Shown here: piece after piece, positions 19,183 to 36,527 of the stretch
How the letters are laid out: every line of letters starts with the position of its first letter
Numbering within the stretch: the stretch's first letter is position 1
Program-made: the position numbers and the translations under genes
The notes under the pieces: model-generated
Told to the model about the DNA's origin: nothing
Databases searched by the model: none
The model's input: only the letters and a program-made list of their open reading frames with translations
Assembly: GCA_049699715.1 (NCBI GenBank)
Contig: JBNAVB010000002.1
Location: forward strand, 1-60,573
DNA: 60,573 bases
Source: Candidatus Pacearchaeota archaeon
GTDB lineage: Archaea; Nanobdellota; Nanobdellia; Pacearchaeales; UBA284
Direction of reading: 5' to 3'

Positions 19183-20907
19183 TTATCTTCTGCTCATCAA
19201 ATGCGCGAAGATCGCGGCAGCAGCAATAACTACAACCACAATCAAGATTATCCACCAGTTTCCAGAAGCCCATCCGATGAAAGTGTGCCATATAATCAAT
19301 CCAGTGAAAGGTGGTTTCTCAGTGGAAGCCAAAGCAACGCTTGAGAAGTGTGACACTTTGGCTGTCACTACCCTGGCATCTTTGTCATCAACACTGGCCA
19401 GAGTCAACCATCTGCCTTCGCTAGGGCTATAAGTTATTATAAACGCATTTGCACTTTCTGATACTTCATACTCATTGTATCTAATCTTAATCTCAGCATC
19501 TTTGTCAAAGGTTATGTCGCTAGGCAATAGAAGGTAAGCTCTCACAAGATAAAAGTTCTGAGCAGGATATGGAATTGCGTCTGCTCTTAAGCTTATTACC
19601 TCTCCTGGTTCCATACATCTTCCATCAATTTTTATTTGAGTTCCTTTGTAAACTTTTAATGAAGCTAATCCATCATCGCTTGTCTCTATCAAGTCCTCGC
19701 TCAATGGCGTGCAAGATCCTTGTGGCTGCTGACTTTGGTTTGTTTGATTAGTCTGATTTGTTTGATTCTGTTGTTGGCAATCCTGTGGGCAGTATATATT
19801 TTCTTGATATTCACAGAGGCCATTGCCGCAAATCGGTCCAGGGCTTCCACCTCCCCCACCGCCACCTCCGCCGCCAGTTCCGGTGATTGTTATATTTACT
19901 GGGGAGGTGAAATTGTTATTCCAGTTTCCACATTCTTCATTAGAATCCACAACAATTCTTGGGGTGAAAGTTCCTCTGCCCGAAGCTTCCCATGTATCTG
20001 AACCACTCTTTGTCTCGCCCACAGCCACAGAACCTAAATTAATAGTCACTAAAAGCTGGTTTTGTCTATATACCCTTACAACAACTCCCGTGGCGTTTAT
20101 TGAAGTGTTCCTAGCAACATTTGTAACATTTACTCTGAATGTGACTGTTTCTCCTTCCCTGACACTATTGTCGGAAACGCTGAATGATTCTAATGCAATA
20201 TCAGAGCCAGAAACATTGAAAGTTTTATTGCCTTCGGCGAAGTAATACTCATTGTATTGTGTCTTGCCTTCCAAGAGGTTTGTGCCACACATTAATGGTA
20301 TTAAAGTATAAGAAGTATAGTTGCTTGTGCCATTAGTTATATTTCCTAAGTTCCTTGAAGGTGGCACCACATTCTGGCCTATAAAATAACTTATAACATT
20401 AGTCGCAGTGTCATTACCAACATTGCTCACATTGACATTGAAATTGACATTGGATTTTGCGATGTATCCCTCGACAGGAGCAGGGGGCATTACAATATCC
20501 ATGGTCAAGAACGGCCTTCCTCCAACTACTATTAATATCGAAGAGTTTTTAGTGCAGTTCTCTCCAGTAATGCTGTTCACAACAAGAATACTAACATTGT
20601 AGCTTCCTGGGGCAGTTGAGTTCATGAGCCATTGTGATGTTGTAAAAGGGGCTGTAGCAGTAGGATTTGCGCTAAGGTTCACTAAGCCACCAACAGGGTT
20701 CCAACTCAAAAGAGCAGTGCCAGTCCATCCTGACATTCCGTTGAAAAAGCTGACATTAAAGGTCTCTCCTAAAATCACAGGATTTGGGTGACTCAAAGTT
20801 CCGTTACACTCTTGCGCTGCTGCTATCGCAGAGCCGAACACAGCCATAATTCCTACTATAATCGCTACTAATCCTGCCAAAATTATTAATTTTATTTTTG
20901 TGTCCAT
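19183..20907 (-). CDS. membrane-anchored surface protein (574 aa) with Ig/CARDB-like domains, Gly11 and (NQT)n linkers
   Basis: Signal-like MDTKIKLIILAGLVAIIVG..., many N-x-S/T sequons, GGGGGGGGGGG, ICGNGLCEYQENIYCPQDC, and a C-terminal TM plus MSRR. Start set at ATG 20907. Confidence 0.75.
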   Translation of the reverse strand: MDTKIKLIILAGLVAIIVGIMAVFGSAIAAAQECNGTLSHPNPVILGETFNVSFFNGMSGWTGTALLSWNPVGGLVNLSANPTATAPFTTSQWLMNSTAPGSYNVSILVVNSITGENCTKNSSILIVVGGRPFLTMDIVMPPAPVEGYIAKSNVNFNVNVSNVGNDTATNVISYFIGQNVVPPSRNLGNITNGTSNYTSYTLIPLMCGTNLLEGKTQYNEYYFAEGNKTFNVSGSDIALESFSVSDNSVREGETVTFRVNVTNVARNTSINATGVVVRVYRQNQLLVTINLGSVAVGETKSGSDTWEASGRGTFTPRIVVDSNEECGNWNNNFTSPVNITITGTGGGGGGGGGGSPGPICGNGLCEYQENIYCPQDCQQQNQTNQTNQTNQSQQPQGSCTPLSEDLIETSDDGLASLKVYKGTQIKIDGRCMEPGEVISLRADAIPYPAQNFYLVRAYLLLPSDITFDKDAEIKIRYNEYEVSESANAFIITYSPSEGRWLTLASVDDKDARVVTAKVSHFSSVALASTEKPPFTGLIIWHTFIGWASGNWWIILIVVVVIAAAAIFAHLMSRR

Positions 20908-20914
20908 TTTAATC

Positions 20915-21286
20915 TTATTTTTTCTTTTGTTGTGGTTTAGGATTGTATCCTGGGACATTCCCAAGCATCCATCTTGCTGCCTCCCCATCATTGATTTTTT
21001 TATTACTATAAGCTTCTGTTATCTTTTCTCTTACATTTACATTTCGATCAAGATACTTGCTCAATATTCTAAAACCTGTCTGATAATCTTCCTTTCTTTC
21101 TTTAATACTTTTTAAGCTGTCTGTTAGTTCCTCCAATTTGCTTTTTGTTTTATTTAATTCTATAGCCATTTTTGTATAATTCCTTTTCGACTCATTTTTT
21201 CCTATAAAATATCCTGTGGTTCCAACAATAGCTAAAACAACGATTCCTATAGCATACTTCAATCCATTTTTATTGTTCATTTTCAT
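20915..21286 (-). CDS. small N-terminally anchored coiled-coil protein (123 aa)
   Basis: One TM (YAIGIVVLAIVGTTGYFIG) followed by helical K/E-rich sequence. Its ATG overlaps the stop of the giant gene (ATGA). Confidence 0.6.
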   Translation of the reverse strand: MKMNNKNGLKYAIGIVVLAIVGTTGYFIGKNESKRNYTKMAIELNKTKSKLEELTDSLKSIKERKEDYQTGFRILSKYLDRNVNVREKITEAYSNKKINDGEAARWMLGNVPGYNPKPQQKKK

Positions 21287-24200
21287 GTAACAATTACAGG
21301 TTTACTTGGGATTATTAATTCATTTATCCCCTCGATTGCGCCGACATTGAAAGTTCCTGTTGCAGTAGCATTTACATGCCATTGGGCAACAACAAAGCCT
21401 CCAGGAGCTAAGTAAATGTAGCTTTGTACAGGGTCTATAGGTGTTAATCCTGCAGGGTTGATTGTCAACAAAACAGGAAAATCATAAAACGCTTGGCTTG
21501 CGAATGAATTTTGTATAGGTAAGTATGTTGTGAAAATAGTGTACAATGGAGGATTCTGATTGTCAATGAAAATCTCTCTAGTGTCATTGCTTACAATGTC
21601 ATTAACACTCCATACAACTAAGTCTAAAGTTTTGAAATCATTGCTTGAGTTAGTGTCCACCGCAACAGCTGCTTTAATTCTCAAAGTGTGTGTTCCCTTA
21701 GGAGTTGAAGTGTAATTGAACGATACAATCTGAGAGTCTCCGGTATTTAGGCTTATATTTTTCGTTTCTATAACAACTGTCACAGGATTTCCATTAACAA
21801 TGTAAGTGTCAGTGAAGTTAATAAGCACATTAGATTCATTAACATTCCCCCTATTCGTTACGATTGCACTTACATTCAATAAGTCATTCAAATAAACTGT
21901 TCTATTATCCCTGCCATTTATCTTGACTTGCCATATATTATCTACACTTACATCATGTATTGCAGGAATCACATTTATGAAATGCGTCGCGCTTCCATTA
22001 GTATAATTCTGGTTCCCATCATAATAAGCAGTTATGTTGTAATACCCTGGAATGTTATAGCTAGTTATTGAAGTCAAAGGCGAGTTTCCATATGCGAATT
22101 GTGTTCCATTTCTTGTCAAATTGAGAAGCCCTGTTGTTGGCGTGAGCAATACAGCCGTATGGTTGACTGCTTGGCCCTCTGTTATTGTGATGTCGCCGTT
22201 TGTTCCATTCAAGTATAATATTAGCGAAGAGTTGGCTTTGTTGATTGTCAAGAAATAAGTAACTGAAGCAGCACTATGATTAGAATCGCCTGTGCTGTAA
22301 GCAGTGAAATTATAAACTCCTGCCGCAAGATTGCTGAAATTCTCAGTATAGCTTGGAGTAGGCCCTGCAATAAGCGAACCATTTCTAAAGATTGAGACAT
22401 TTCCGTAGAGTGTTGAAGCATTGAACTTTAGAGTTTCATTGGCATAAGTTACAGTTAAGTTGCCTTCTGTTCCATTAAGCCACAAATGAATGTCACCTGG
22501 AAGTAAAGGTGAAACAATTAGGATGTTGCTGATGCTTGCCGCAGTCCAGTTTTGCGATCCAGTTGTGTTGCACACATAAGTGTAGTTGCCTACGGGCAAA
22601 GTCGCTACATTACTTACGAGATTGTAGCCAGAAGCGACAAGCGAATCATTCCTGTACAGGTTCAATAAAACTTCATTGTTGTTTGCTGCGCAAGTCACAT
22701 TTGTCTGAGTTCCAACAGTAACATTCCATGATGGCAATGCACTCAAGTTCAAGACTGTAGCGCCTTGATTAACAACTAAGGTTCTTAATGGAGTCGAGCC
22801 AGCGCTATAGTTCTGATTCCCTGTTGTGTTATAAACATAATTGTAAACTCCAGCGCCTAAAGTTCTTATATCGCTCGCAGGATCGCCACTAACAACAAAC
22901 GAGTTATTTCTGTACAGATTATAAATTATACCCGAGACATTTAAGTCGCTCCATCCAGTTGCATTTGTAACAGCAGGATAAGTAACAGTTAAATTGCTCT
23001 CGCTTCCATTCAGCGCGAGATGTAAGAAGTTTGCTATATTTTCTTGTGTTACAACATACTGCATTATCGGAGTTTGATTATAATTATTTGAAGTGTCGCG
23101 AGCGAACCATCTGTAGCTGTGGTTTCCAACGGCTAATCCGGTGAAGCTGTAGCTGCATAAAGTATCATTTACTGGCAGTCCAGGCATACATGTAGGTGTA
23201 TAATTAACGCCGTTGAACTCAAACCAAGCTTGAGCAACAGCGACATTGTCTTGCCATGTTATGTTGAACCAGTAGACTTGCGTTGGTGAATAGACTTGGG
23301 GGCTTGGAGGAGCAACAGTTATGTTCAGATACCAAGGAGGTATGAAATCTCCTACCTGTATAATGTTCACAGTTCTATTTCTCTCATTGTCTGTAGGATT
23401 AATATCGACATAGCCGACAATTGTGGCATTAACTGTTATATTATATTGTCCAGGTGCAAAAGCAGAAGGATTGAAAGTCACATTTCCTAGATGGAATTGC
23501 GAAATTGATTGCAAGTAAGAGCTGATGAGATATCTTCCTGTAGAATTTACAAGCCAAACCGTCATGTTGACTTGTTCAGGATTAATTTCAGGATAACCGT
23601 TGTTGTTTATTCTGTATCTAATGTAATAAGTCTCGTTCTGTGACAAGTTCGCAGGATTATCCATAATATCTGTTCCGTTCATTGTTGTGATTCTTATTCC
23701 ATTGATGCTGTTAGTATAATTAGCGACAACCTCAACGTCATGCAATGCGATAATAAAGAACCATGTTTCGCTCACTCCAGTCAAGCTGCCAGAATCAGTG
23801 CACTCAACTCTCCATGAGTGAGTTCCCTTTGCTATACCATTTATAGTAAAATTAGTTGTGGTGTTGTTTTGTGTTATTTGAGATTGATTAGCCACATTAT
23901 CAAGGAAAATTGTGCATGAGAAGCTTAAGTCATTATCATCAGTTGCAATATAAGTAAAATTAATAGTCTGCTGATTGTGGAACATTGTATTGTTCAAAGG
24001 CGACGTTAAATTCACAACTGGTGGTAAGTTTGGCGAAGTTGTGTTAACGTTAACATATCTTGTCTCGCTGACATTCCAGTTATTGCTCGTATCATTTGCA
24101 TAGACTCTGAAAATATATAAGCCATCGCTCAATCCAGTTACATTCAAGTAGTAGTTTGGCTCGGCTCCTTCCATAGTGAAATTAGTACCATTCCATTCCA

Positions 24201-27200
24201 ATACTGCAGTGTCTACAGCAACATTATCAGTTATGCTAGTATTAACATAAACATAATTCATGTTGATAGTTGAACCGTTTGTAGGAGTTGGTGACACAAA
24301 AATTATGATAGGGGGGTCTATGTCTCCTGTTCCATTAATTACAGTTATATTATATACAGTATCAGATGAACTTCCGCCTTGCTCACAAGTTGTCGTTACA
24401 GTTATGTTTGAATTTCCAATAGCCGCGGCAGTAACATTCCATTGTGTCACAACTGTAGTGCCATTGCTTATGTTTCCTAAAACATTAACTGGCTGTGTTG
24501 TGTTCAAAACAGAGCTGTTTGAAAAAGTTATTGTTGCATTACAATTTACTACATCACCATTGACAGCAGTAACATTTGCTTCAGTGATGAAAATTTCAGA
24601 AACATTAAATATCGAATTATTTAATGGCTGTGTTATAACAGTTGTTGTATTGCCAAAACTAGGAATAGCTTGGACTACAAACCAAGTTGTCTCGGTTGTA
24701 TTCCAATTGTTGCTCGTATCATTGGCAAAAATCCTAACACTGTAATTTCCGACTTGTAAAGTGTCAGTGAAGTTGTACAAATACTGCTCAGTAATCATGC
24801 CAGGCGCCATTGTATAATTGGCCTGAGTCAAATCAGGATATGTCACTTGCGCTAGCACAGTATCAACTGCTACATTATCTCTAACATAGGATTCAAGCAT
24901 TGTGGCTTGGGTCTGATTAATGACTTGAGGATTTGCGCTGACGTTCCAAACTTCAGGTGGGATCAAGTCAGGGCCTGTAACATTTACAATGAAAGTCCAG
25001 TTTTGTGGAGCAAAGGCGCTATTATTTGCATCATCCCTACATCTAACATTCCAAATGTAAGCACCATTTGCTAAATCGCTATAATCCCAATTTCCATTTG
25101 TCCCATTTGCAGTTTGTCTTGAACCATCAATTTGCCAAATTCCGCTTGTGTTACTATATATATCGCAATCAAGCAGCAAGTCTATATTGTCAGTAACGTT
25201 ATAAATTACAGTCACATTTTCTCCAGTTTGTGCACCATTTGGAGGAAAAATTAAGGTTACAACAGGCGAGGTTGTATCACCAACAACATTCACCCAGTGT
25301 GTTTCATTAGATTCAGAATAATTTTGTGTTCCAGGATATCTTGCAGTGAAATTGTGCAATCCTGGTTCTCGGAATGCAGTAACATAAGTTACAGTATGGT
25401 TGTCTATTGCAATCCATAATCCGTCCATATAAAGCTCAATCTCATAGAGCTGCGGCTGCGGGGCAGGTATACTATCAATCCCTATCTCCCCTATCTCATC
25501 ATCGCTTTCTTCTTCATCAATAAGTGAATCATTCACTGGCGGTTGATAGAAGCTAGGGATAATTAAATAGCCGGTGGCATTGACAGTCTCATTTACATTG
25601 ACAGTTATGTTTCCATCGATTCCGTTTAAAGTTAAATTCACAAGCGAAGCCGCTTTGTCGACATGTAAGCTATTGCCAATGCTCGCTGCACTCCAGTTCT
25701 GGTTTCCATTAGTGCTACAATTGTAATAGTAATAGCCCGCACCCAAAACGTTTACATCAGGATTGCTTACATTCAAATCGTTTCTTTTCAAACTTAAAGT
25801 GACTTGATTTGTATTAGCGCTACATGAAATATTTGTTTGTGTTGGATAAGTTACATTCCACCCAGGAATCGCGTCAAGAGTCAGTATTGTCTGTGCAATA
25901 TTAATTACATAGATAGCAGAAGTGCTTGCGTTCGTGTAATTCTGAGTTTCGCTAACATTACAAACATAATTGTAACCAGCAGGATTTGCAGCAAGCGTGA
26001 TAGGCTCACCGTTTTCATTTGTAATATTAATTCCATCTCGCCATAATTGCGCTGGAGCTTCGGGATTAGTACAAGAGCATAAAGCGATGAAAGGTTGCAT
26101 ATTATAAGTGATAGGGCTTGGAGGAATAAAACTCAAATTACAAGTCGAGTTTATTTTGCTTGTCACATTTAACCATCTTGTGATGCTCTGGCTTGTATAA
26201 TTCTGAGACTGGGGATAATAATAGGTGTAATTATATAATCCAGCGCTCAAGTTTGCTATCTCAGTAGCGGGCGATCCAGTCGCAACAACCTCTCCATTCC
26301 TGGAAAGTGTTGCATTAACAGCTCCTTGGATTATCTCGAGCCAGCCTGTTACATTAGTTATTGTATTTATAGGAACACTTAAGTTGCTCTCATTTCCATT
26401 GAGTGCAAGATGTATGGTATGATTTGCTCTATTTACAACATATATTGCAGTTGCGCTCGCATTTTTATAATTCTGTGTTTCGCTAACATTACACTCATAA
26501 TTATAAGTTCCTGCTCCAAGCAAGACAAATTGGTTGTTCTCTGAATCAATGTTCAATCCATCTCTCCATAATCTCGCTGGGGCTTCTGGGTTAGTGCAGT
26601 AACATGAAGCATTTGTCAAAGTTCCATAAGTTACCGGAGATTGCGGATTAAAGCTTAAGTAGCATGTGGAATTTAATAAAACATTAGTTACATTTACTTG
26701 CCATGCTTTAGTGGCTGTTCCGCCCTTGCCGTCATTCACAATAACATAAACATCATGCAACCCGGAAGCATTGAAATCAGGATGGTAATTATAATTTGTA
26801 GTAGTTGAAACTTCATTTCCGTCCAAGTTCCACGAATAATACAATGGATCATTGTTTGGGTCGTGAGCCCACACTTCAAAATGCAATGTCTCATTTTCAT
26901 TTACATTTGGTGTCATGTCTTGAGGAACCCAGTCATCAATTATAGGATCTTGATTCAAACCATCGAATCTTATTGTTATATGCTCTGACTCGACAAGATG
27001 ATTCCCTAAATCCATTGTTGTGGCATAGTAAGTATGTGTTGTATTCTGAGTTTCGGTCTTGACTTTAACGAATGTGCATGTAGTTTGTCCGTAACAATCT
27101 TTATAGCCCCACTCTTGATTGTCTTCATATATTCTTATCCATCTTATCCCTGCATTGTCAAGATAATCTGTAGCAATTGCCGTCAAAACTGCAGTTGTAT

Positions 27201-27447
27201 TTGTATGGGTTGTATCAGAAAAGAATTGTAATGTAGGTGCAGGGTCAATTAAATAGCCATTGCCTGGATTTTTAAGACTTATAATAGGATTAACAGGTTG
27301 TGGTTGATAAGGCAATTGCGGTTGTTCTGGAGTGGGTTTGAATGCAGAATCCCATTTTTGATTATAATATGTCAATAAAGAAAACAAGAGAGGCAAGACT
27401 ATAAAAATTGGAATCAAACTCAAAATCAATCTTGCTTTCTTATTCAT
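21283..27447 (-). CDS. giant repeat-rich surface protein (2054 aa), probably heavily N-glycosylated
   Basis: Uninterrupted 6.2-kb ORF with an N-terminal signal/anchor and two families of roughly 85-90-aa repeats (LNGxExNLTV... and NPEAPAxLWRDG...NVSETQNY). N-x-S/T occurs about every 10-15 residues. Confidence 0.85.
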   Translation of the reverse strand: MNKKARLILSLIPIFIVLPLLFSLLTYYNQKWDSAFKPTPEQPQLPYQPQPVNPIISLKNPGNGYLIDPAPTLQFFSDTTHTNTTAVLTAIATDYLDNAGIRWIRIYEDNQEWGYKDCYGQTTCTFVKVKTETQNTTHTYYATTMDLGNHLVESEHITIRFDGLNQDPIIDDWVPQDMTPNVNENETLHFEVWAHDPNNDPLYYSWNLDGNEVSTTTNYNYHPDFNASGLHDVYVIVNDGKGGTATKAWQVNVTNVLLNSTCYLSFNPQSPVTYGTLTNASCYCTNPEAPARLWRDGLNIDSENNQFVLLGAGTYNYECNVSETQNYKNASATAIYVVNRANHTIHLALNGNESNLSVPINTITNVTGWLEIIQGAVNATLSRNGEVVATGSPATEIANLSAGLYNYTYYYPQSQNYTSQSITRWLNVTSKINSTCNLSFIPPSPITYNMQPFIALCSCTNPEAPAQLWRDGINITNENGEPITLAANPAGYNYVCNVSETQNYTNASTSAIYVINIAQTILTLDAIPGWNVTYPTQTNISCSANTNQVTLSLKRNDLNVSNPDVNVLGAGYYYYNCSTNGNQNWSAASIGNSLHVDKAASLVNLTLNGIDGNITVNVNETVNATGYLIIPSFYQPPVNDSLIDEEESDDEIGEIGIDSIPAPQPQLYEIELYMDGLWIAIDNHTVTYVTAFREPGLHNFTARYPGTQNYSESNETHWVNVVGDTTSPVVTLIFPPNGAQTGENVTVIYNVTDNIDLLLDCDIYSNTSGIWQIDGSRQTANGTNGNWDYSDLANGAYIWNVRCRDDANNSAFAPQNWTFIVNVTGPDLIPPEVWNVSANPQVINQTQATMLESYVRDNVAVDTVLAQVTYPDLTQANYTMAPGMITEQYLYNFTDTLQVGNYSVRIFANDTSNNWNTTETTWFVVQAIPSFGNTTTVITQPLNNSIFNVSEIFITEANVTAVNGDVVNCNATITFSNSSVLNTTQPVNVLGNISNGTTVVTQWNVTAAAIGNSNITVTTTCEQGGSSSDTVYNITVINGTGDIDPPIIIFVSPTPTNGSTINMNYVYVNTSITDNVAVDTAVLEWNGTNFTMEGAEPNYYLNVTGLSDGLYIFRVYANDTSNNWNVSETRYVNVNTTSPNLPPVVNLTSPLNNTMFHNQQTINFTYIATDDNDLSFSCTIFLDNVANQSQITQNNTTTNFTINGIAKGTHSWRVECTDSGSLTGVSETWFFIIALHDVEVVANYTNSINGIRITTMNGTDIMDNPANLSQNETYYIRYRINNNGYPEINPEQVNMTVWLVNSTGRYLISSYLQSISQFHLGNVTFNPSAFAPGQYNITVNATIVGYVDINPTDNERNRTVNIIQVGDFIPPWYLNITVAPPSPQVYSPTQVYWFNITWQDNVAVAQAWFEFNGVNYTPTCMPGLPVNDTLCSYSFTGLAVGNHSYRWFARDTSNNYNQTPIMQYVVTQENIANFLHLALNGSESNLTVTYPAVTNATGWSDLNVSGIIYNLYRNNSFVVSGDPASDIRTLGAGVYNYVYNTTGNQNYSAGSTPLRTLVVNQGATVLNLSALPSWNVTVGTQTNVTCAANNNEVLLNLYRNDSLVASGYNLVSNVATLPVGNYTYVCNTTGSQNWTAASISNILIVSPLLPGDIHLWLNGTEGNLTVTYANETLKFNASTLYGNVSIFRNGSLIAGPTPSYTENFSNLAAGVYNFTAYSTGDSNHSAASVTYFLTINKANSSLILYLNGTNGDITITEGQAVNHTAVLLTPTTGLLNLTRNGTQFAYGNSPLTSITSYNIPGYYNITAYYDGNQNYTNGSATHFINVIPAIHDVSVDNIWQVKINGRDNRTVYLNDLLNVSAIVTNRGNVNESNVLINFTDTYIVNGNPVTVVIETKNISLNTGDSQIVSFNYTSTPKGTHTLRIKAAVAVDTNSSNDFKTLDLVVWSVNDIVSNDTREIFIDNQNPPLYTIFTTYLPIQNSFASQAFYDFPVLLTINPAGLTPIDPVQSYIYLAPGGFVVAQWHVNATATGTFNVGAIEGINELIIPSKPVIVT

Positions 27448-27466
27448 TTTTTTATATTTCCCTTAC

Positions 27467-29125
27467 TTAATCTGAAAATTTGAATCTCGCTTCTGCTCCT
27501 ATTTTCCAGAGGTTTTGGTTTTGATTGCTGCCCTTTGCTTCGATAGTTTCAACTGAGATTATGCCTTCATTTTGTGCTTTCCCCAATCCAATATAAAACT
27601 TTTTCTTGCCTTCTCCAAAATCAATTCCGCCTCTTATTCTTCCATTATCATAAACTGAATATCCAAGCTCAACTTTAATCTCTGAATACCCCCTTCTTCC
27701 ACCGATTCTTTTAAAATCTAATAAAAGATAAGGCCCGTAAAGCTTTGTTAATAATTCAACATCTTTATATTTCTGTATCAATGCTTTTTGTCTGTCATTC
27801 ATTGAAGCATTTCTTGTAAGCTCTTCTTTTTCACTTAGATATTTTGAAAGCTCTTTAACATAGCCCAATTTTAACCAGTCAAGAGCTAAGATAATTCCAA
27901 ATCCAAATGAACTGTTGTTAATCTGGGCTTTCAATGCATTTACAAAACTGCCTGTTTGATAGTTAAATTGATTCTTCACAGCCCATTCATTAGAGTTGAA
28001 AAAAGCTTTGTCAAAATAAAATCTGTTGTTGACATTCCCGTTTTTATTTATTGAAATCAAGAAATTAAATAAGTCTGTGTTAATCTGCTCTCTGCCGAAA
28101 TCTCTTGTTCTGTTTCGAGTTTCTGTGCTGTAAGCGAAAGGAATAGTATCACTGTAAGGCTGATTGCCTCCCAAAATGTCAACAATTGTCTGTCCATTGA
28201 CATTAACAATTGAGTTTAGGTTGTTCCTTACCTCATTCTCGACAATATGATGCTGTAAAACCGCGCCTAATGCTAATTCCAATGGAATTTTTGCGCTAAA
28301 TTTTTGATTATATAGGATTCTATATTTGGTTATATCTTCTTTATTTTTGATAATTGTCTCGAGGTTTGTCAATACATTAGTTAGCGTATTTGTTCTTGTG
28401 ATTATTGTGTAAGGGCCTTCTAGAGTTCGCGTTGAATCTCTGTAATTTTCTAAGAATGCATCTATTGTAGTAATTGTATTGTTTTTTGTTGTATTATATC
28501 TCCCAATTTGGATAATAGCACTATGATTCTCTCCATTCATCTCAGCGCCCACTCCCCACATGTTTCCATTATTCTCCTGCTCTTCACTTGAAATCTGTCT
28601 GTCTTGCTGATAACTCCATGCTCTTCCATTTTGGATACTATTAATCGTATTTCGAAAATTTGTTAATGTGTCTGTTCTTGTGCTAGATTCCTTGCTCAAT
28701 TCTATATTTGGATTGACTTGCCAGTTTTTTCCATTAATCTTAGTCATCCCCCCAACAGCCGCATTATTCCAAATGTCATTGAATCCGCTTTTAAGATAAG
28801 GTCTCAAGCTAAGATTCCCATTTGGGTTCGCTTCGCCATCCAAATATAATCCAAAATAACCTTTTCCGCCGAATTCAAGTTTGCCGCCATAATTATGGTT
28901 TTTTTCTCCGTTTTCTACTTTGGCACCTGCTTTAACAGATGAGGTCATCGGAGGAATTGTTTCTGGAGAAATTATAATTTTATTTTCAAGAGTGTCTTTT
29001 TGAGTAGCTTTTTTATCTTCATCATCTTCAAAAACGTTAATCTCCGGCGGCTGTAAAAGAGGTTCTACATCCAGATTCTGCGAAAATAAATTCAATGCGA
29101 GTAAGCCTGTGCTTAATATTCCCAT
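27467..29125 (-). CDS. beta-strand-rich protein (552 aa) with porin-like amphipathic strands
   Basis: Gly/Asn/Tyr-rich sequence. The C-terminal part alternates hydrophobic and polar residues (YSEIKVELGYSVY, KFYIGLG, GIISVETIEA, LWKIGAEARFKFSD). It is the first gene of the operon. Confidence 0.7.
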   Translation of the reverse strand: MGILSTGLLALNLFSQNLDVEPLLQPPEINVFEDDEDKKATQKDTLENKIIISPETIPPMTSSVKAGAKVENGEKNHNYGGKLEFGGKGYFGLYLDGEANPNGNLSLRPYLKSGFNDIWNNAAVGGMTKINGKNWQVNPNIELSKESSTRTDTLTNFRNTINSIQNGRAWSYQQDRQISSEEQENNGNMWGVGAEMNGENHSAIIQIGRYNTTKNNTITTIDAFLENYRDSTRTLEGPYTIITRTNTLTNVLTNLETIIKNKEDITKYRILYNQKFSAKIPLELALGAVLQHHIVENEVRNNLNSIVNVNGQTIVDILGGNQPYSDTIPFAYSTETRNRTRDFGREQINTDLFNFLISINKNGNVNNRFYFDKAFFNSNEWAVKNQFNYQTGSFVNALKAQINNSSFGFGIILALDWLKLGYVKELSKYLSEKEELTRNASMNDRQKALIQKYKDVELLTKLYGPYLLLDFKRIGGRRGYSEIKVELGYSVYDNGRIRGGIDFGEGKKKFYIGLGKAQNEGIISVETIEAKGSNQNQNLWKIGAEARFKFSD

Positions 29126-29305
29126 TCTTTCCCTTTAGCCTTATTATTTAAATAGCTCTCGACTATTTATTTTTTACTACCCTATGTTTTCTATGTTTTT
29201 ACTACTTGGAAGATATTTAAATCTTTCTCTTGTTGAAACAAAAAAGTAGTGACAAAGTGGTGGTAAAAAAAACACAAAATAAATAAAATATTTTTTCTTC
29301 TTTTT

Positions 29306-30718
29306 GTGATGAAACTCGTTCCAATACTTATTTTAAGCTTGGTTTTAATTGCAATTTTTCCGATGGTTAAGGCCTTAACCATCAACGAAATAATGTACAA
29401 TCCTGAAGGGGATGATAACAATAGGGAGTATATAGAAATTTATTTTGAAAACTGGACTGATTTAACGGGGTGGATTATTGCAGATGTCTCTTCAAATGAT
29501 ACTCTTATGCCTTTACAAGAATCGACGAGCAATTATGCCTTGATCGTCGAAGATGGTTTCAACTATACGGGCATTGATGCGTCGGTATATTCTGCTGGGG
29601 CAACTATCGGAAATAATCTGAACAACGACGGCATAGAAGTAATCTTTCTTTATGACTCTAATCAAAACCTGATAGCAACAGCGACCTATAATGATTCAAT
29701 GGGCGCAGATGGTGATGGTAAAAGTTTGCAGCTGTGCAATAATTCCCTTCTTGCAAATTTTCCAACTCCAGGAACACAAAACAATTGCTCGCAAGGCGGC
29801 AACGAGCCCCCACAGCAGCAGGAGTCTTCAATAAAGATTGTCGACTCCCCAAAAAATGCAAAATTCGGAGATGAGATTGAAGTCGGGCTAGAAATTTATA
29901 GAGGCAACACCTCAAAATATGCAGTTTATATTTATGTAGAGGACAAGGATGGCACAGATGTCAGTAATAAAGTAACATTGCACTGCGATGACAAATTCAC
30001 AAATTATACCGAGACTGTTGAACTTGAATTAAAATGCAAGGAAGAACAAGGGGAGTATGTTATTGTCGCAGAGGGTTTGAATGAGCGTGATGAAGAAGAG
30101 ATTAAAATAGAATCATGCCATGAGCTCCAAAAAGAAGAACAAGGAACAGGACAAGAGGGAAACGAAGGAGTCACCATCGGAGATTTTACTTATAGTATAA
30201 CAATTCCGAATAAAATTTATCTAAATCAAGAGTTTCAAGTTAAAGTTAAAATAGAAAGCCAAGCCGAACAAGAGCAAGAGTTCCTTGTTTGGGGTTACAT
30301 TTATATCGGAAGCAAATGTTATTCTTGCACTGACACTATTACAAGAGAAAGCAATGCCAAGTCCATAATAGTGTCTTCTGGGGATTCTGCAGAGGTTTCT
30401 CTCGTGAACATTGTAGGATCAGATTCAGCAGAACCAGGGACTTATAAGTTAAAAGTAAAAATTTTGCAGCAAGGTTTGAAAACTCCTAAAGAATTCACTT
30501 ATAACATCACTCTTGAATCAAGCACTTTATCGCAAACCACAGCGCAACAATCTCAACAATCACAATCATCTGTCCTACCCCCATCAACATATGCCGCTTA
30601 TTCTTCAAATACTAACACAACAGAATCAGAAAGCTTCTCGTTCATAAAAATAGGGCCCTATATTTTGGTTTCTCTCGCTTTGCTCGCAGCGATTTATCTG
30701 ATAATCACAAAAATTTAA
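29306..30718 (+). CDS. lamin-tail-domain surface protein with C-terminal TM anchor (470 aa)
   Basis: Signal peptide, LTD pattern INEIMYNPEGDDNNREYIEIYF...LTGWIIAD...NNDGIEVIFLYD, S/Q/T-rich stalk, and a terminal hydrophobic helix. Confidence 0.75.
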   Translation: MMKLVPILILSLVLIAIFPMVKALTINEIMYNPEGDDNNREYIEIYFENWTDLTGWIIADVSSNDTLMPLQESTSNYALIVEDGFNYTGIDASVYSAGATIGNNLNNDGIEVIFLYDSNQNLIATATYNDSMGADGDGKSLQLCNNSLLANFPTPGTQNNCSQGGNEPPQQQESSIKIVDSPKNAKFGDEIEVGLEIYRGNTSKYAVYIYVEDKDGTDVSNKVTLHCDDKFTNYTETVELELKCKEEQGEYVIVAEGLNERDEEEIKIESCHELQKEEQGTGQEGNEGVTIGDFTYSITIPNKIYLNQEFQVKVKIESQAEQEQEFLVWGYIYIGSKCYSCTDTITRESNAKSIIVSSGDSAEVSLVNIVGSDSAEPGTYKLKVKILQQGLKTPKEFTYNITLESSTLSQTTAQQSQQSQSSVLPPSTYAAYSSNTNTTESESFSFIKIGPYILVSLALLAAIYLIITKI

Positions 30719-30749: not shown

Positions 30750-31256
30750 ATGCAAGAATCTAGCATGGACAAAAGAGAAATCAAGGAAAAAGTAACAAAA
30801 GGATGGCTTCGCGTTGCTTTAATTATCGAGGTGTTGGGAAAGCCAGTGGACTATCTCGAGAAGGCTCTTAGCATGGCAGTAGATGCTTTAGAAAAAAGCG
30901 GCAAAGCAAACATTCTTGAAAAGAAAATTCATCCAGCAAAAGCGCTGCCCAACACAAAAGAGGTTTTCACAACTTTCGCTGAAATCGAGATTCTCGTGCA
31001 GGACATTTCAAAATTAATCGAAATTATTTTCGATTACATGCCAAGCTCGATAGAAATTATAGAGCCAGCGAACTTTTCATTGAAGCTTGAGGATGCAAAT
31101 GCAGTCTTAAACGATTTGGCAACAAAACTCCATCAGTATGACACTCTTCTCAAAAAATCAAGGCTCGAACTCGAGATTCTCGCTAAAAGGCTGAAGGAAC
31201 TCGCAGAAAAATCTGGGGAGAAATTGGGCGAGAAGAAAGAAGAAAAGAAAAAATAA
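30750..31256 (+). CDS. hypothetical protein (168 aa), helical K/E-rich C-terminus
   Basis: ORF only; no family recognised. Confidence 0.5.
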   Translation: MQESSMDKREIKEKVTKGWLRVALIIEVLGKPVDYLEKALSMAVDALEKSGKANILEKKIHPAKALPNTKEVFTTFAEIEILVQDISKLIEIIFDYMPSSIEIIEPANFSLKLEDANAVLNDLATKLHQYDTLLKKSRLELEILAKRLKELAEKSGEKLGEKKEEKKK

Positions 31257-31275: not shown

Positions 31276-33723
31276 TTAAACTCTTGTTATCCCAGGGGGT
31301 CTCTGAAATCTTTTTTCATATGCCCTTGAGGTTTCTTCGAGGAACTCTTTCATCTCTTTTTTGGGTTTCTTTTTCAATACATATAGTATTATTAATAGCA
31401 CAATTACAACTACAACTATAATTATCAGTGCAATTGTGGTCCCTTGCCCTCCTACCTTCTTACAGCTATCAGCAGGAATGCAACAAGCATAACTTTCTTT
31501 CGATGTAGTAAGATTTCCTGTGCAATTTTCATTTGTTTCATTGCAAATCTTCCCCCCCATCTCGCTGCAGTCCTTTAATTCTATGGCTAGGCCTATAACA
31601 TTAATCTTTACAGGCAAACTCGCCTTTATCTTTTGGCTATCATAGTTTGCAGTTACTTCAATCTCACCGCTGAAGTTGTCAACCCGGGCAGGCATAAATG
31701 AGATAGTTATATTCCTTGTTTCATCTTTTTCAAGCTTATCAATATAAGAAGGATTTATAGTTATTGAACCTCCCATAAGGGTAAGTGGAGTAGAATGTCC
31801 AAACAGCAAGCCTGTTATGTCCCTGTCCATCTGGTTTGAGATTCTTACTGTTGTCGTGAAAGGCTCATTAACGTTGATAGTTTTAGTGATGTTTCTTTCA
31901 ACAAATCTAAAGTACTGAAGCAAGCTCTGGTTTATCTCAGTTGTTTTGTTCTTGGTTTCTTCTTGGGTTTCATTTATTATTTCTTCTTGCTTTGATTCAT
32001 TGATTTCTTCCTCGCTCGCGTTTATTGTACCGTTAGTTTGTTCTTGGACTGATTTTTGCGTAAAAATAACAATAGGGATGCTATAACTGAAAATTTTGTC
32101 AGAGATTTTTGTTTTGTAGTCTAAGGATAATATTTCAACTAAGGATCTCCCATCGGTTGTGGTGAATAAAGGAACATTGAACTTGACATTTTTGATTGTT
32201 CCAGAATCAATCTCGAATTGGGTAGTAGAATTTAGCAAGCCCGCGTTAACCATAATTGTTTGTGTTCCTTTGTTATTCAGTATCAAACTGAAACTGCCTA
32301 GACTATCAGTCTTGACAATTCCCGGCCAAATCGTTATCACAGGCTCAATGTCCTTTGCCTGAAAAGCATAAGCCAAAATTATGGCTTTGTCCTTTAGCAT
32401 TGCAGAGCTCGAGCTGAACTGCCCCAACAGCCATCTTTCTCCTTTTGCAATCGCTTCGAGAAACTCAGAAGAGCTTTCACTGTTCACGTGGCTTTTCACA
32501 GCAAGAATCGCAATCGAGGTCGCTCGGATGTCTGGTTGATAGTCTCCACTTTTAGGCCACCATCCTGCGCCTGTCTGCGAGCCAAGCAGCCACGTCAACG
32601 CATCTAAATCACTTGTTATGTAATAAACGACTGCCTTTTCTTCTACAGAATTTGCATTTCTATTGAGCCATGAAATCGCAACAATATGATTCGTTGAATT
32701 TGCATTAAAGTTTGCGGTTTTAGCCAAAGCCATCAAAGCAAAAACTGTAGATTCCTTATCACAGTTGCCTGTAAAAACATTATTAAAATTAGAAACAAAA
32801 CATCCCCTGTTATTCAAGACTGTCTGAACTGCCTGCCCTTCTCCTAAAGCAATAGATTTAGAAAATTGTTTGTATGTGTAGACTATGTTGCCGTTGACAC
32901 TTGAGTTACAGCTCACTTTCACAGTAATTATTTCATCAGTCACATTACTGAAGTCCAAGTCAAGAGAATTGCTTCCAGCAACGAGCGAGATATTTGAAGT
33001 TTCATTGTTTATCGAAAGATTGCATTCTTGGCTCAGGCTCGAGTTCAAATTCAATTTCCAGCTGCCTTTGTTGACATAGCTCTGTGCTGCTTCAATATTG
33101 TTAATCATCTTTTGTCTAATTAGACTGTCTTTGAAAGCCATGAGCGTGAGGGCATTGAAAAAAGTGCTGCAATTTATTTTCAAGCAAGAATCGCTTCTGT
33201 TGACAAACGTTCCTAACGCTTGTTCATAAGTCTTATCATCATGCGCCAAAGCCATCGCGCTCAGGAGATGTTCGTCCAAGTCCAAAGATAGGAACTTGTC
33301 TTTTACCAAAGGTTTAAATTCCAAGTATTTTGAAGCTATCGTGGTCTCTACTTTAAAATTAATTTCTGAAACATAAAATCCGTCTGGACAGTTCCCTCTC
33401 ACTTTAACACTGTAATTGCCCCCCCCAGGCAACAGGTCGAACCATGCAAAATATTTTGTGTTAGTCACTTTAGTCAAGAATATTGTTACAGGAATTCTCG
33501 TCTCGCCTTTGTAAAGAAAAATGTCACTAGTAAGAATTTCTTTGATTGTCGGCGCATCTATTTCAAGCTGCACAGTCTCTTGAGGCAAATAACTTGTCTT
33601 TGCAAGTTTCAAAGAAATGCAGTTTGCCCCGCTGGCAAAACCTAAACTTACAATCCCAATAATAGATATGCTAATTATAATTATAAAACTAAAGACAGCA
33701 AGTGGCTTTTGCTTTAACCCCAT
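31276..33723 (-). CDS. single-pass surface protein (815 aa), paralogue of 34110-36527
   Basis: Signal/anchor and a large ectodomain containing GAGWWPKSGDYQPDIRATSIAILAV. It has one 6-Cys module (CSEMGGKICNETNENCTGN...YACCIPADSC), a TM helix and a basic tail. Confidence 0.75.
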   Translation of the reverse strand: MGLKQKPLAVFSFIIIISISIIGIVSLGFASGANCISLKLAKTSYLPQETVQLEIDAPTIKEILTSDIFLYKGETRIPVTIFLTKVTNTKYFAWFDLLPGGGNYSVKVRGNCPDGFYVSEINFKVETTIASKYLEFKPLVKDKFLSLDLDEHLLSAMALAHDDKTYEQALGTFVNRSDSCLKINCSTFFNALTLMAFKDSLIRQKMINNIEAAQSYVNKGSWKLNLNSSLSQECNLSINNETSNISLVAGSNSLDLDFSNVTDEIITVKVSCNSSVNGNIVYTYKQFSKSIALGEGQAVQTVLNNRGCFVSNFNNVFTGNCDKESTVFALMALAKTANFNANSTNHIVAISWLNRNANSVEEKAVVYYITSDLDALTWLLGSQTGAGWWPKSGDYQPDIRATSIAILAVKSHVNSESSSEFLEAIAKGERWLLGQFSSSSAMLKDKAIILAYAFQAKDIEPVITIWPGIVKTDSLGSFSLILNNKGTQTIMVNAGLLNSTTQFEIDSGTIKNVKFNVPLFTTTDGRSLVEILSLDYKTKISDKIFSYSIPIVIFTQKSVQEQTNGTINASEEEINESKQEEIINETQEETKNKTTEINQSLLQYFRFVERNITKTINVNEPFTTTVRISNQMDRDITGLLFGHSTPLTLMGGSITINPSYIDKLEKDETRNITISFMPARVDNFSGEIEVTANYDSQKIKASLPVKINVIGLAIELKDCSEMGGKICNETNENCTGNLTTSKESYACCIPADSCKKVGGQGTTIALIIIVVVVIVLLIILYVLKKKPKKEMKEFLEETSRAYEKRFQRPPGITRV

Positions 33724-34109: not shown

Positions 34110-36527
34110 TTATTTCTTGCTCATTTTTTTCAATTTGCTCAATGTTTTCTCGAGCTCGCTTTCGGTCTTGCCTTTTGGCTTTGTTGCCGTTGCCGTCGCA
34201 GGCACTGATGGTGTGGGTCCTAGCACTGGTTTTGCTAAAGGTTTTAACAATGGCTTTGGCTGAGGTCTAAATAATGGTCTCGGGCTTATTCCTGGTCCTG
34301 GGGTGCTAGGCCTTACAACAGGCCTAATTACTGGCCCTCCAAACGGTCCCCCGAACGGGCTGACTTTCTCTTTGGGTGGCCCTTTCTTCTTTTTCATGAC
34401 TAAGAAATAATAAGCCGCTCCTCCACCGAGAATTACTACAATAATTATTATCCATATCCACCACAATCCAGCAGGCTTCTTACAAGTTCCATTGACACAA
34501 CATTTCAATTGATTTGGGAATTCTGCCGAATATGTCATAGTACCACTGCATTCCTGATCTGTGGTGCATATTGTTCCTCCTTGTTTGTTGCAAGATTCTA
34601 AACATTGGCCCTCGCAGCACTCTTCTTCGTCTCTTGTTTCAACAATGTTTCCAGTGCATTCCTCGCCTAGCAAGCATTTCGCTCCGATACTTGAACAACT
34701 CTTATCTGGAACACATTTTACATTTCCCCCTACACAACATCTTTTTGAATCGGGGGTAGTCGTAAAGTCAACAACACGCCAAGTTAGTTTATTAATACAC
34801 ACCTCATCTGACTGGCATTCAGTACCTATATCGGGACAGTTCTCTTCGCTGGTTCCTCCCGAGCATTCTCCTAGGCAACATGCGCCATCAAGGCTTTCAA
34901 CTTCTTCGCCTAAACACGTTTCGCCTAAAAGCGGATCGCAAATTGTTCCATGCAATTCATCACAAGTTGATTCAGCGTAAGCCTTGCAGCAATACAGAAA
35001 GTCAGGGCAGAATATTGTTTCTATCTCTGTTTCATTCTCTTCGCATAGCTCTCTGCATGCACCTCCGGCACTAGTACATTCTGCTTCTCCTGCGCCTATA
35101 TATTTGCAGCAGATCTCGCCTGTTTCACAAGCCGCGTCAGGAATCTCAATCTCGTCGGGATTGCAAGTAATATTAGTGGTGCATCTGTAATCATAGCCTA
35201 AATCAAGACAGTTGCCTCCAGGGCCTACACCGACTCCAGGGCATAATCCCGGCCATAAAACCCATAACGCGAATGCAGTGTCCCTTATTGGTTCTTTCTG
35301 CGACTCACCATAGCCAGCCACAACCAAGCTTCCGTCTGTGCCTTGATTTGAGATCAAATAATTTTTTGCTTTAGCTATCGCATCAATACCACTCGCACCT
35401 AGAGCCAAACCAGCATGAGCAGTGTCATAAACTCTTCCATAGGTAATTGGTTGGATTAACCAGTAACCTTTGTCTGTTCCAACGACTTTCTGCGCAGCAA
35501 GAATTTCCGTGTTGTAACGCTCGCCACTGGTTATAGGATATAAAAAGGAAGAAGGGAAAAATCGTATGTTATCTTCAGAAAAAACTACAAGATAGGGCAC
35601 AAACATCTTTGCGCGCTCTCTTTCCTCTGTATTAGCTGAAGTTGCTAATGCATAAGCGCTCCATGCTGTCCCTTCATAATCACAGCCTTGTCCTATACCA
35701 ATAGGATTTGCAAGACAATAACTTATAACCTCAAGCTCGAGGGGATTTGGCTGATCCTCAAGTTTTTCGCTTCCAGGCACTCCCGGCCTGCCGCTCTCGG
35801 TTTGGCTTGACACGTGCCAGATATTCGAACCAGTTTTCTTGTAAAGAAGCGATGCTCGGTAAGTCGTCGCATTACTCCAGCATTTGATAGTATAAGTATA
35901 AGAATAACAATCTTTATCAGCGCGAATCTTAAACCAGTAAGGTTCTGTAGTATCAGTGTAAAAACATTTGCTTGTTCCATTCACGATAGAGACCTTTTTA
36001 TCAGCAGCAACTTCAAACATCTTTTCTTCATTGCCGCCGTATATTATCTCGCAGGAAGCATTTGAGCCCCTGTCAATATCAATCTGTAAATACCAGTTGA
36101 TTCCCAAAACCTGTGTCATGTTCCTCGAAAGAATCCATTTGGTGACCTTAGTTGTGTTGTCACCCCAGCTGTCAAGCGCGACTTTCGCTAATGCCGTCTC
36201 TGTTAACATGCAACCGTCTTGGCTGGAAGGCTTGCTAGGCCCGGCGCCCCAACAACTCAGGTTCTGCGACGAAAATCTTTTAGCATAAAGCGAGGAGTTA
36301 CCAGGATTGAAATAACTTTCATTGCATCTTAGTGCGAGGACAGAAAAAACATGTTGCTTGATGTTTAATGTTTGCCATTTCCCTTGGACTTGTTTAATGA
36401 GCCAATCATAAGTTTTAGCCACTTTCTGCTCTTCAGTTGTGCCGCCAGCTTGCGCAGCGATATGAGAAATCAGAAGTGTGGCGATAATAAGACCGATAAA
36501 AACAATTAATGCACTCTTTTTTACCAT
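34110..36527 (-). CDS. single-pass surface protein (805 aa) with an array of 6-Cys modules and a Pro-rich cytoplasmic tail
   Basis: Signal peptide, ectodomain (NQGTDGSLVVAGYGESQKEPIRDTAFALWVL), Cys-rich array at aa 428-683, TM at aa 687-711, and tail PFGGPFGGPVIRPVVRPSTPGPGISPRPLFRPQPKPLLKPLAKP. Confidence 0.8.
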   Translation of the reverse strand: MVKKSALIVFIGLIIATLLISHIAAQAGGTTEEQKVAKTYDWLIKQVQGKWQTLNIKQHVFSVLALRCNESYFNPGNSSLYAKRFSSQNLSCWGAGPSKPSSQDGCMLTETALAKVALDSWGDNTTKVTKWILSRNMTQVLGINWYLQIDIDRGSNASCEIIYGGNEEKMFEVAADKKVSIVNGTSKCFYTDTTEPYWFKIRADKDCYSYTYTIKCWSNATTYRASLLYKKTGSNIWHVSSQTESGRPGVPGSEKLEDQPNPLELEVISYCLANPIGIGQGCDYEGTAWSAYALATSANTEERERAKMFVPYLVVFSEDNIRFFPSSFLYPITSGERYNTEILAAQKVVGTDKGYWLIQPITYGRVYDTAHAGLALGASGIDAIAKAKNYLISNQGTDGSLVVAGYGESQKEPIRDTAFALWVLWPGLCPGVGVGPGGNCLDLGYDYRCTTNITCNPDEIEIPDAACETGEICCKYIGAGEAECTSAGGACRELCEENETEIETIFCPDFLYCCKAYAESTCDELHGTICDPLLGETCLGEEVESLDGACCLGECSGGTSEENCPDIGTECQSDEVCINKLTWRVVDFTTTPDSKRCCVGGNVKCVPDKSCSSIGAKCLLGEECTGNIVETRDEEECCEGQCLESCNKQGGTICTTDQECSGTMTYSAEFPNQLKCCVNGTCKKPAGLWWIWIIIIVVILGGGAAYYFLVMKKKKGPPKEKVSPFGGPFGGPVIRPVVRPSTPGPGISPRPLFRPQPKPLLKPLAKPVLGPTPSVPATATATKPKGKTESELEKTLSKLKKMSKK

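Follow-up and report, generated by a model that had tools for sequence, protein, structure and literature searches.

We describe a cluster of four genes, here named gA, gB, gC and gD, at positions 19183-29125 on the minus strand of a 60,573-nucleotide (nt) stretch of DNA from Candidatus Pacearchaeota archaeon (assembly GCA_049699715.1, contig JBNAVB010000002.1, positions 1-60,573), referred to below as the window. On balance, we regard the cluster as a conserved cell-surface assembly or attachment module of DPANN archaea of the Pacearchaeota/Woesearchaeota type. The tight gene arrangement, its conservation in relatives, extracellular signatures in the products and a co-variation between the giant protein gB and the membrane-anchored protein gD were observed directly. 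A role of the assembly in host contact is put forward only tentatively. Literature searches found no paper describing this gene cluster, in agreement with the initial annotation of the window, which could not assign the genes to a described system.

Results

A tightly packed cluster on an archaeal chromosome

The open reading frames (ORFs) and spacers of the initial annotation were reproduced: 19 nt separate gA and gB, 7 nt separate gC and gD, and gB and gC overlap by 4 nt (distance -4 nt), an ATGA overlap read directly from the sequence (gttacATGAaaatg). The start of gD was set at the ATG at 20907 by alignment with nine homologues; the longest ORF extends to 20991 and would encode 602 residues. 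The sole sizeable gap of the cluster, 180 nt 5' of gA, is bordered on its other side by a divergent gene for a lamin-tail-domain (LTD) protein, and a TATA-box-like element, CTATTTAAATAA, could be read there, centred about 25 nt 5' of the gA ATG. An archaeal TATA box would be expected at this distance from a leaderless first gene, and we take the element as a candidate promoter of the operon, whose transcript would be leaderless. A scan for sigma-70 promoters and terminators showed no enrichment; archaea lie outside the scope of the sigma-70 model. Pfam and NCBIfam revealed no enzyme domain among the four proteins, consistent with the earlier failure to recognise a catalytic motif in them. N-terminal hydrophobic segments had been ascribed to all four products; they are present in gB, gC and gD, whereas no segment of gA passed a 19-residue hydrophobicity scan.

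The window encodes ribosomal proteins L2, L3, L4 and L11, diphthamide synthase, an archaeal-type prolyl-tRNA synthetase (ProRS), RIO kinase, the primase large subunit (PriL) and a tRNA that probably contains an intron. Judged by the archaeal markers flanking the cluster on both sides, the window is archaeal chromosome. Relatives are labelled Candidatus Pacearchaeota or Woesearchaeota, and the suggestion of a DPANN-type organism was supported. A bacterial origin, raised by the 'WOR-3 bacterium' label of P0002, was rejected, since the contig concerned shares 98.7% identity with a Pacearchaeota scaffold and archaeal markers lie on both sides in the window. The 8.8-kb locus L004 (GCA_039801425.1, labelled as a candidate division WOR-3 bacterium) matches L005 (Pacearchaeota, GCA_038885395.1) along its entire length at 98.7% identity. 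We regard it as almost certainly an archaeal contig placed in the wrong bin, and its co-binning could reflect co-occurrence. A viral or mobile origin was likewise rejected, as no relatives were found on viral contigs.

Gene order recurs in unrelated flanking contexts

Recurrence of the gene order in relatives had been set beforehand as the test on which the module idea could fall. The order was kept at more than ten loci, which lie in three unrelated flanking contexts (LTD/radical-SAM/ProRS, AMMECR1/gyrase and Nramp/DsbD; Table 1). A giant gene lies directly 3' of the gA-family gene in all nine cases with readable downstream DNA, and a gB homologue precedes gD, for which about ten relatives were found, at all ten gD loci having upstream sequence. 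Spacers are at most about 55 nt at most loci; an exception is L024, where 577 nt, including two small ORFs, separate the giant gene from gD. The recurrence of the same tight co-directional order at many independent loci means that the arrangement is not due to chance, and since the flanks differ among the three contexts, general genome collinearity does not account for the linkage. These results support the view that the four genes form one conserved module of predicted exported or membrane proteins.

The proposal of a dedicated four-part surface module had to be narrowed. The association of gA, gB and a C-terminally anchored partner is conserved, whereas the small gene for a transmembrane (TM) and coiled-coil protein, gC, is absent or relocated at several loci; the conserved core is a triad. 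gC has one TM segment (residues 9-27) followed by a K/E-rich helical region that is probably a coiled coil, and with 17-52% identity to its orthologues it is the least conserved member of the cluster. It is missing between gB and gD at L006, L007, L009, L012 and L021, and at L006 a 185-residue protein with a signal peptide and a coiled coil is encoded at the head of the cluster instead. The C-terminal 170 residues of gD group together at the four loci where gC lies between gB and gD, and this co-occurrence with one gD C-terminal type hints that gC works with the membrane-proximal part of gD.

The C-terminal end of gB co-varies with the N-terminal domain of gD

Co-variation within the cluster was analysed at 11 loci using pairwise identity matrices and the Mantel test. 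Sliding identity along gB revealed a mosaic, and its last 250 residues fall into two types, type I in the window, L001, L010, L006 and L012 and type II in L005, L007, L021, L009, L022 and L024, with 45-78% identity within types and 31-43% between them. The N-terminal domain of gD divides into exactly the same two groups (33-75% within, 24-34% between), and the identity matrices of the two regions are strongly correlated (r = 0.94, Mantel p = 0.0002). When each was compared with the segment adjoining it in its own protein, r was only 0.32-0.41, and the background segments gB_pre and gD_mid correlate with each other instead (r = 0.76). The partition of the gD C-terminal 170 residues described above differs from these two groups. 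gC does not follow the type split, being 52% identical between the window and L005, which are of different types, and 17% identical between the window and L001, which are of the same type. Since gC, which lies between the two, has had another history, one continuous recombination tract does not suffice to explain the pattern. Co-variation of gA with the N-terminus of gB was looked for and was not evident.

A third, independent case of a matched gB end and anchor was observed at L015. The anchor encoded there is not homologous to gD; it combines CarboxypepD_reg repeats with a signal peptide and ends in 'KPLTGLL...TM...RRRY'. In the L015 giant, the C-terminus has changed to the domain type of this anchor (E 2e-11 between both), while homology to gB persists over the first 1200 residues (36% identity); the locus also retains its gA-family gene. 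The idea that gD is a duplicate of the gB C-terminus was ruled out for the window (best E 0.037) but holds in L015. We infer that the gB end and the N-terminal domain of the anchor were exchanged or co-adapted as a matched pair, and the segment-specific pattern argues with reasonable probability that gB docks by its C-terminal end on that domain.

gB is a slowly evolving giant with dense sequons

gB begins with a signal or anchor segment (residues 3-27) and a P/Q-rich linker, followed by about 20 beta-sandwich modules resembling Ig-like, PKD, Y_Y_Y and CARDB domains; its Pfam matches (Y_Y_Y, Big_7 and PKD) are weak, and it has no C-terminal TM segment. One repeat type, of about 88-residue Ig-like modules, occupies residues 258-720 and 1435-1830, and a second occupies residues 723-1240 and 1366-1466. 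The protein contains 136 N-X-S/T sequons, 47 being expected from its composition. An excess of 2.6-3.1-fold was found in all six gB homologues compared, and 60-79% of the sequon positions of the window gB are common to relatives of about 70% identity.

Identities to orthologues were calibrated against housekeeping proteins of the same genomes. ProRS, radical SAM and PriL showed 76-84% identity, gB 70-71%, gD 45-65% and gA 32-45%. A 2054-residue surface protein that evolves at nearly the housekeeping pace speaks for a core structural function more than for an arms-race adhesin, and such conservation is no less compatible with a core structure of the envelope than with a fast-evolving adhesin for the host. 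With gB as query, searches of the PDB by sequence and by profile were empty or gave noise.

gD carries an anchor and a sorting-signal-like end

From its N-terminus, gD is composed of a signal peptide (AAA|QEC), the N-terminal domain, a CARDB domain, a poly-Gly linker, a 'CGNGLCE..CPQDC' mini-domain, a Q/N/T linker, a C-terminal beta domain, a P-x-x-T-G motif, a Trp-rich segment, a TM segment and a basic tail. TM segments were predicted at residues 1-19 and 542-560. The CARDB match (PF07705) scored 28.4 bits against a gathering cut-off of 22.7 and recurred in all ten gD-family members (best E 3.9e-13); it defines a domain, not a function. gD holds 23 sequons where 8.4 are expected. Taken together, the signal peptides and TM segments, sequons, Ig-like, CARDB and PKD matches and cysteines suggest that gB and gD are exported proteins with predicted glycoprotein signatures. 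PDB searches with gD and with the gD-family profile were empty or gave noise.

Residues P532, T535 and G536 of gD are invariant in ten homologues, and about 17 residues lie between the P-x-x-T-G motif and the TM segment. An end of the form P-x(1,2)-T-G, TM segment and basic residues also occurs in the non-homologous 525-residue L015 anchor ('KPLTGLL...') and in the LTD protein of L007 ('PVTGMAV...'). In these three protein types the end consists of an invariant P-x(1,2)-T-G, a stretch of about 15 residues, commonly rich in Trp, then a TM segment and a K/R tail. It resembles LPXTG and PGF-CTERM sorting signals in combining a motif, a TM segment and a basic tail but differs from them in lacking a family hidden Markov model (HMM) match: the known sorting-signal models (NCBIfam/TIGRFAM, E<=1) did not match the gD end, which is not identified as a substrate of sortase (LPXTG) or archaeosortase (PGF-/PEF-CTERM). 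The gD-type end may be a signal for sorting or anchoring that is specific to the lineage.

Two further observations concern gD. The Cys mini-domain ('CGNGICE...CPQDC') has matches at 17 otherwise unrelated metagenome loci (L025-L041) and seems to be widely distributed among archaeal surface proteins as a small module. A 140-residue antisense ORF contains a poly-Pro run that mirrors the gD poly-Gly linker and is an artefact, not a gene.

gA is predicted to be an OMP-like beta-protein

An exhaustive HMMER search of 1.84 billion protein cluster representatives retrieved a gA family of 12 representatives, only two of them close relatives. No sequence match was found in Pfam, NCBIfam or the PDB, also with the family profile, and a search of a word-indexed database with the 12-member profile added nothing. 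The window gA starts with a short conserved 'LLxLQLISQ' helix, which bears E/Q in close homologues, and its hydrophobic stretch has only 13 residues, all uncharged; classical Sec signal peptides are present in the members P0022 and P0023 and in those of L007 and L021. Unlike gB and gD, gA has no cysteine and no enrichment of sequons.

The structure of gA was predicted by AlphaFold2 (AF2) with the 12-member alignment, giving a predicted local distance difference test score (pLDDT) of 77 and a predicted TM-score (pTM) of 0.66, with all five models at pLDDT 70-77; a three-sequence run (pLDDT 30) was discarded. In the model, residues 1-73 are disordered and are followed by 20 consecutive antiparallel strands joined by turns of 2-8 residues. 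Fourteen of the 20 strands are 10-14 residues long, whereas strands 5-10 (residues 140-361, pLDDT >90) have 25-38 residues and form three long hairpins, all on the same side; a helical hairpin (residues 422-461) lies on the side of the termini. Foldseek searches of the PDB placed TonB-dependent receptors, LptD and the PapC usher at the top (E ~2e-8, probability 1.0, query TM-score 0.2-0.36), bacterial outer-membrane barrels being the only significant fold matches, and barrel matches were also obtained with the viral library BFVD. The long hairpins hold about half of the structured residues and have no counterpart in the Foldseek targets, so that the attainable TM-score is capped.

Family-averaged hydrophobicity showed a dyad pattern in which nearly all short strands have one apolar and one polar face, and a clearly apolar face was found in only three of the six long-strand bases. 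Aromatic residues make up 17% of the short strands, 13% of the long-strand bases and 5% of the distal parts of the long strands. The very C-terminal residue is F in three of 11 full-length members, and most others have F within three residues of the end ('FKFSD' in the window). A search for known outer-membrane protein (OMP) sequence families gave one sub-threshold match to OMP_b-brl among the 12 members (E 0.016) and no more. The initial annotation had spoken of a putative membrane beta-protein, and the AF2 model and the Foldseek and BFVD matches agree with it in predicting an OMP-like beta-meander. On these grounds gA is likely an OMP-like beta-barrel or beta-sheet protein, while its embedding in a lipid membrane is a more doubtful prediction.

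At L006, the gA position is taken by a 476-residue protein that resembles gA in its N-terminal 'LQQILLSQ', in a helical insert near the middle of the chain and in its C-terminal '...YGF'. It was considered as a gA homologue, but neither HMM searches nor hhalign made a link, and it is therefore termed an analogue; either extreme divergence or convergent replacement could have produced it.

Comparison with known surface systems

In the SlaA/SlaB surface layer (S-layer) of Sulfolobales, two proteins encoded by adjacent genes divide assembly and anchoring between them (PMC12175726). gB resembles SlaA as a large, sequon-rich and beta-rich outer protein without a C-terminal TM segment, whose gene lies directly 5' of that of a smaller partner (here with gC between), and gD resembles SlaB in its signal peptide, beta-sandwich domains and single membrane anchor. 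Splitting display from anchoring lets the parts evolve apart in both systems, here with matched cassettes. gB differs in being built of about 20 repeats in a row, not as a compact multi-domain sheet, and the cluster has two extra genes, gA and gC. SlaA is a glycosylated protein by experiment, and SlaB has a coiled coil where gD has Gly/Q-rich linkers and the Cys mini-domain. No PDB chain, SlaA and SlaB entries included, matched gB, gD or the gD-family profile, and SlaA/SlaB is the closest functional analogy for gB/gD, without homology. The initial annotation would have yielded to clear homology with characterised S-layer components; PDB searches with gA, gB and gD were empty or gave noise. MSTP-like beta-sandwich tiles have been reported as S-layer proteins for DPANN phyla including Nanoarchaeota (Johnston et al., 10.1101/2024.05.28.596244), and no tile domain of the MSTP/DUF1608 type was found in gA-gD (Pfam, E<=1).

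As predicted, gA shares with bacterial OMPs an even-numbered (20) antiparallel next-neighbour meander, amphipathic aromatic-rich strands of 10-14 residues and a C-terminal strand with Phe at or close to its end. It differs from them in its archaeal host, in having no plug, POTRA domain or family HMM match, and in the three hairpins of 25-38-residue strands that replace loops and the helical hairpin inserted on the termini side. A barrel-like gene directly 5' of a gene for a giant repetitive surface protein recalls the TpsB/TpsA and intimin/invasin pairs, and gB has the Ig-like repeat 'passenger' architecture of intimin. The cluster departs from two-partner secretion (TPS) systems and inverse autotransporters in its third, C-terminally anchored partner and its archaeal host, and no POTRA/Omp85, TPS, LysM or Big_1 domain was found in gA or gB (Pfam, E<=1).

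The fibrillar adhesins and giant surface proteins reported from genomes of DPANN archaea and of the candidate phyla radiation (CPR) are like gB in their tandem Ig-like stalk repeats, membrane anchor, very long product and episymbiont-type genome. gB is unlike them in its slow evolution (71% against 76-84% for housekeeping proteins) and its fixed multi-gene context with an orphan beta-protein. Stalk repeats and an anchor (the N-terminal TM segment, or via gD) are present, and no adhesive tip domain was recognised in gB with Pfam.

Discussion

We propose that the cluster is read from one TATA-type promoter 5' of gA, probably as a single transcript. gD would be exported by the Sec pathway and held in the cytoplasmic membrane by its C-terminal TM helix, its poly-Gly and Q/N/T linkers keeping the N-terminal domain clear of the membrane. 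gB would also be exported and would dock on that domain via its last 250 residues, and since gD is the membrane-anchored one of the two, gD would serve as the anchor or stalk and gB as the giant distal element. gC, a small bitopic protein, would be an optional accessory tied to one type of the membrane-proximal domain of gD. For gA, we envisage an exported OMP-like barrel or sheet from which three long hairpins protrude and which is constantly partnered with the N-terminal two-thirds of gB, the conserved part. The assembly would most likely be a long surface fibre or coat that contributes to envelope structure and cell-cell (host) contact; a coat, a fibre and a host-contact bridge are each compatible with the evidence.

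Several points weigh against this proposal. The co-varying segments of gB and gD are close to each other on the DNA, and cassette exchange by recombination could give the pattern without direct contact. The long N-terminal hydrophobic segment of gB may remain membrane-bound, which would make the idea that gD holds gB less straightforward, and an identity of 71% appears unusually high for a host-interaction adhesin. The gA model was predicted from 12 sequences and its TM-scores to real barrels are low (0.2-0.36), half of its long-strand bases have no clear hydrophobic face in the model, sequons are not enriched, and its signal peptide looks weak in this genome. We also know of no outer membrane in this lineage.

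Among the alternatives, it is highly improbable that the four genes encode independent surface proteins that are mere neighbours in a collinear region and have no joint function. The region of ProRS, radical SAM, LTD, the 815- and 805-residue proteins described below and PriL is indeed also collinear among the closest relatives, and gC is dispensable, but the gA-giant-anchor triad is kept where the flanks are wholly different (L006, L012, L015), the short spacers hold at most loci with the exception of L024, and gB and gD show segment-specific co-variation. An unlikely though more serious reading is that the cluster encodes the true S-layer of the organism, with gB as the lattice canopy, gD as a SlaB-like stalk and gA and gC as lattice or pore accessories. 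The near-housekeeping conservation of a 2054-residue surface protein, the presence of one conserved locus per genome fragment examined, the dense and position-conserved sequons and the order of a big protein followed by a smaller anchored one, as in slaA-slaB (PMC12175726), all speak for it, and several archaeal S-layers are built of Ig-like domain arrays (10.1101/2024.05.28.596244). The same reading is weakened by the absence of an MSTP-like tile domain from gA-gD, and also by the lack of sequence similarity to any solved S-layer protein and the swapping of the C-terminal end and anchor as cassettes. To our knowledge, about 20 tandem bead-like domains in 2054 residues exceed known S-layer proteins and are more fibre-like.

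Two further readings turn on gA. In one, which we consider distinctly improbable, an outer membrane or lipid layer is present, gA is an archaeal outer-membrane barrel that translocates or anchors gB, and gD and gC belong to the inner-membrane side. The arrangement would then be comparable with two-partner secretion or with a split inverse autotransporter such as intimin. The 20-strand meander with OMP-like structural-alphabet (3Di) matches, the dyad hydrophobicity and aromatic enrichment of the strands, the family C-termini with F at or within three residues of the end, the Sec signal peptides of distant family members and the place of the barrel gene directly 5' of the giant gene in 9/9 cases are all in its favour, although POTRA, Omp85, TPS and autotransporter domains were not found (Pfam), the TM-scores to barrels are low and the OMP_b-brl match was weak and limited to one of 12 members. 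We know of no BAM-like machinery in archaea. Double membranes have been documented in a few archaea, including DPANN ARMAN cells (PMC4243693), and the only literature match for a beta-barrel together with an outer membrane in DPANN or Altiarchaeota was a brief remark that Altiarchaeales may have a distal relative of PopA (PMC12228718). The other, bolder reading takes gA as a genuine archaeal membrane-inserting barrel in an unseen outer membrane or in the host membrane and gB as a tether of about 20 domains from this barrel to gD in the symbiont's own membrane, that is, a 'tether-and-pore' contact apparatus that would have no homologue in bacterial secretion systems; we hold it to be rather unlikely, and slightly less so than the S-layer reading.

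The surface module proposed here, an anchored partner with a giant distal element and an orphan beta-protein, bears on the building of DPANN envelopes and on host attachment, which are largely unexplained in these uncultivated organisms, and it provides a concrete, testable set of parts. Should gA in fact form a barrel in a membrane, few if any beta-barrel membrane proteins would have been assigned to Archaea before it, and it would bear on the archaeal double-membrane debate and on how episymbionts open host contact. Read conservatively, the cluster would still be a new two-component (anchor and giant) surface system outside Sulfolobales.

Neighbouring genes and other features of the window

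Table 1 Coordinates of the cluster and of other features, with the gene order at related loci (window positions unless a locus is named; gene order as product lengths in residues)
Feature	Position	Strand	Description
gA	27467-29125	minus	552-residue ORF
gB	21283-27447	minus	2054-residue ORF
gC	20915-21286	minus	123-residue ORF
gD	19183-20907	minus	574-residue ORF
gB C-terminal cassette	21286-22035	minus	residues 1805-2054; two deep allelic types matching the gD N-domain type
gD N-terminal domain	20200-20817	minus	about residues 31-236; type I in the window, paired with type I gB C-terminus
gD tripartite signal-like end	19186-19314	minus	'PPFTG' + LIIWHTFIGWASGNWW + TM + 'SRR'
gD Cys mini-domain	~19777-19830		gD residues 360-377
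TATA-box-like element	29144-29155	minus	candidate promoter, CTATTTAAATAA, read from the sequence
T-G end carrier, L015	L015:16352-17929		525-residue anchor
T-G end carrier, L007	L007:51-1466	minus	LTD protein
gA-position protein, L006	L006:2822-4252	plus	476 residues; analogue of gA
Antisense ORF	19823-20245	plus	140 residues; artefact
LTD-domain protein	29306-30718	plus	470 residues
MJ0538-family protein	30750-31256	plus	168 residues
815-residue protein	31276-33723	minus	signal peptide, near-C-terminal TM
805-residue protein	34110-36527	minus	signal peptide, near-C-terminal TM; 5.7% Cys
SNase protein	12550-13392	plus	SNase and lamin-tail domains
tRNA	8839-8965	minus	127 nt; Rfam
tRNA-Leu call	34226-34324	plus	99 nt; ARAGORN; probably false positive
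654-residue protein	46311-48275	plus	signal-peptide-like N-terminus
804-residue protein	48477-50891	plus	signal-peptide-like N-terminus
L001			545, 1939, 125, 567
L005 / L004 / L013			526, 2027, 140, 579
L010 / L017			514, 2162, 144, 575
L007			552, 2240, 585
L021			554, 2225, 582
L042			516, 2028, ...
L016			540, giant (cut by contig end)
L006			185, 476, 1907, 559
L015			528, 1586, 525
L009, L012/L019, L022, L024			partial loci

The window is dense in surface proteins between 19 and 37 kb. The LTD-domain protein divergent from the cluster has a signal peptide and a C-terminal TM segment, and its gene is adjoined by that of the MJ0538-family protein. Both genes lie near the cluster at at least seven related loci (L001, L005, L007, L010, L016, L017 and L021), are absent from L006 and L015, and may be loosely associated fifth and sixth components. 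The 815- and 805-residue proteins that follow gave no Pfam match beyond a weak CD1107-like one and are 56-63% identical to their counterparts in L001. The tRNA-Leu call of ARAGORN lies inside the coding sequence of the 805-residue protein and is unsupported by Rfam, so it is probably a false positive. The tRNA found by Rfam elsewhere in the window was missed by ARAGORN and probably contains an intron.

Farther from the cluster, the secreted protein with SNase and lamin-tail domains is conserved in L005, L010 and L011. It is probably an extracellular nuclease, which fits nucleotide scavenging by a symbiont with a reduced genome. The adjacent 654- and 804-residue proteins have no Pfam match, and from their N-termini they may be another uncharacterised secreted pair.

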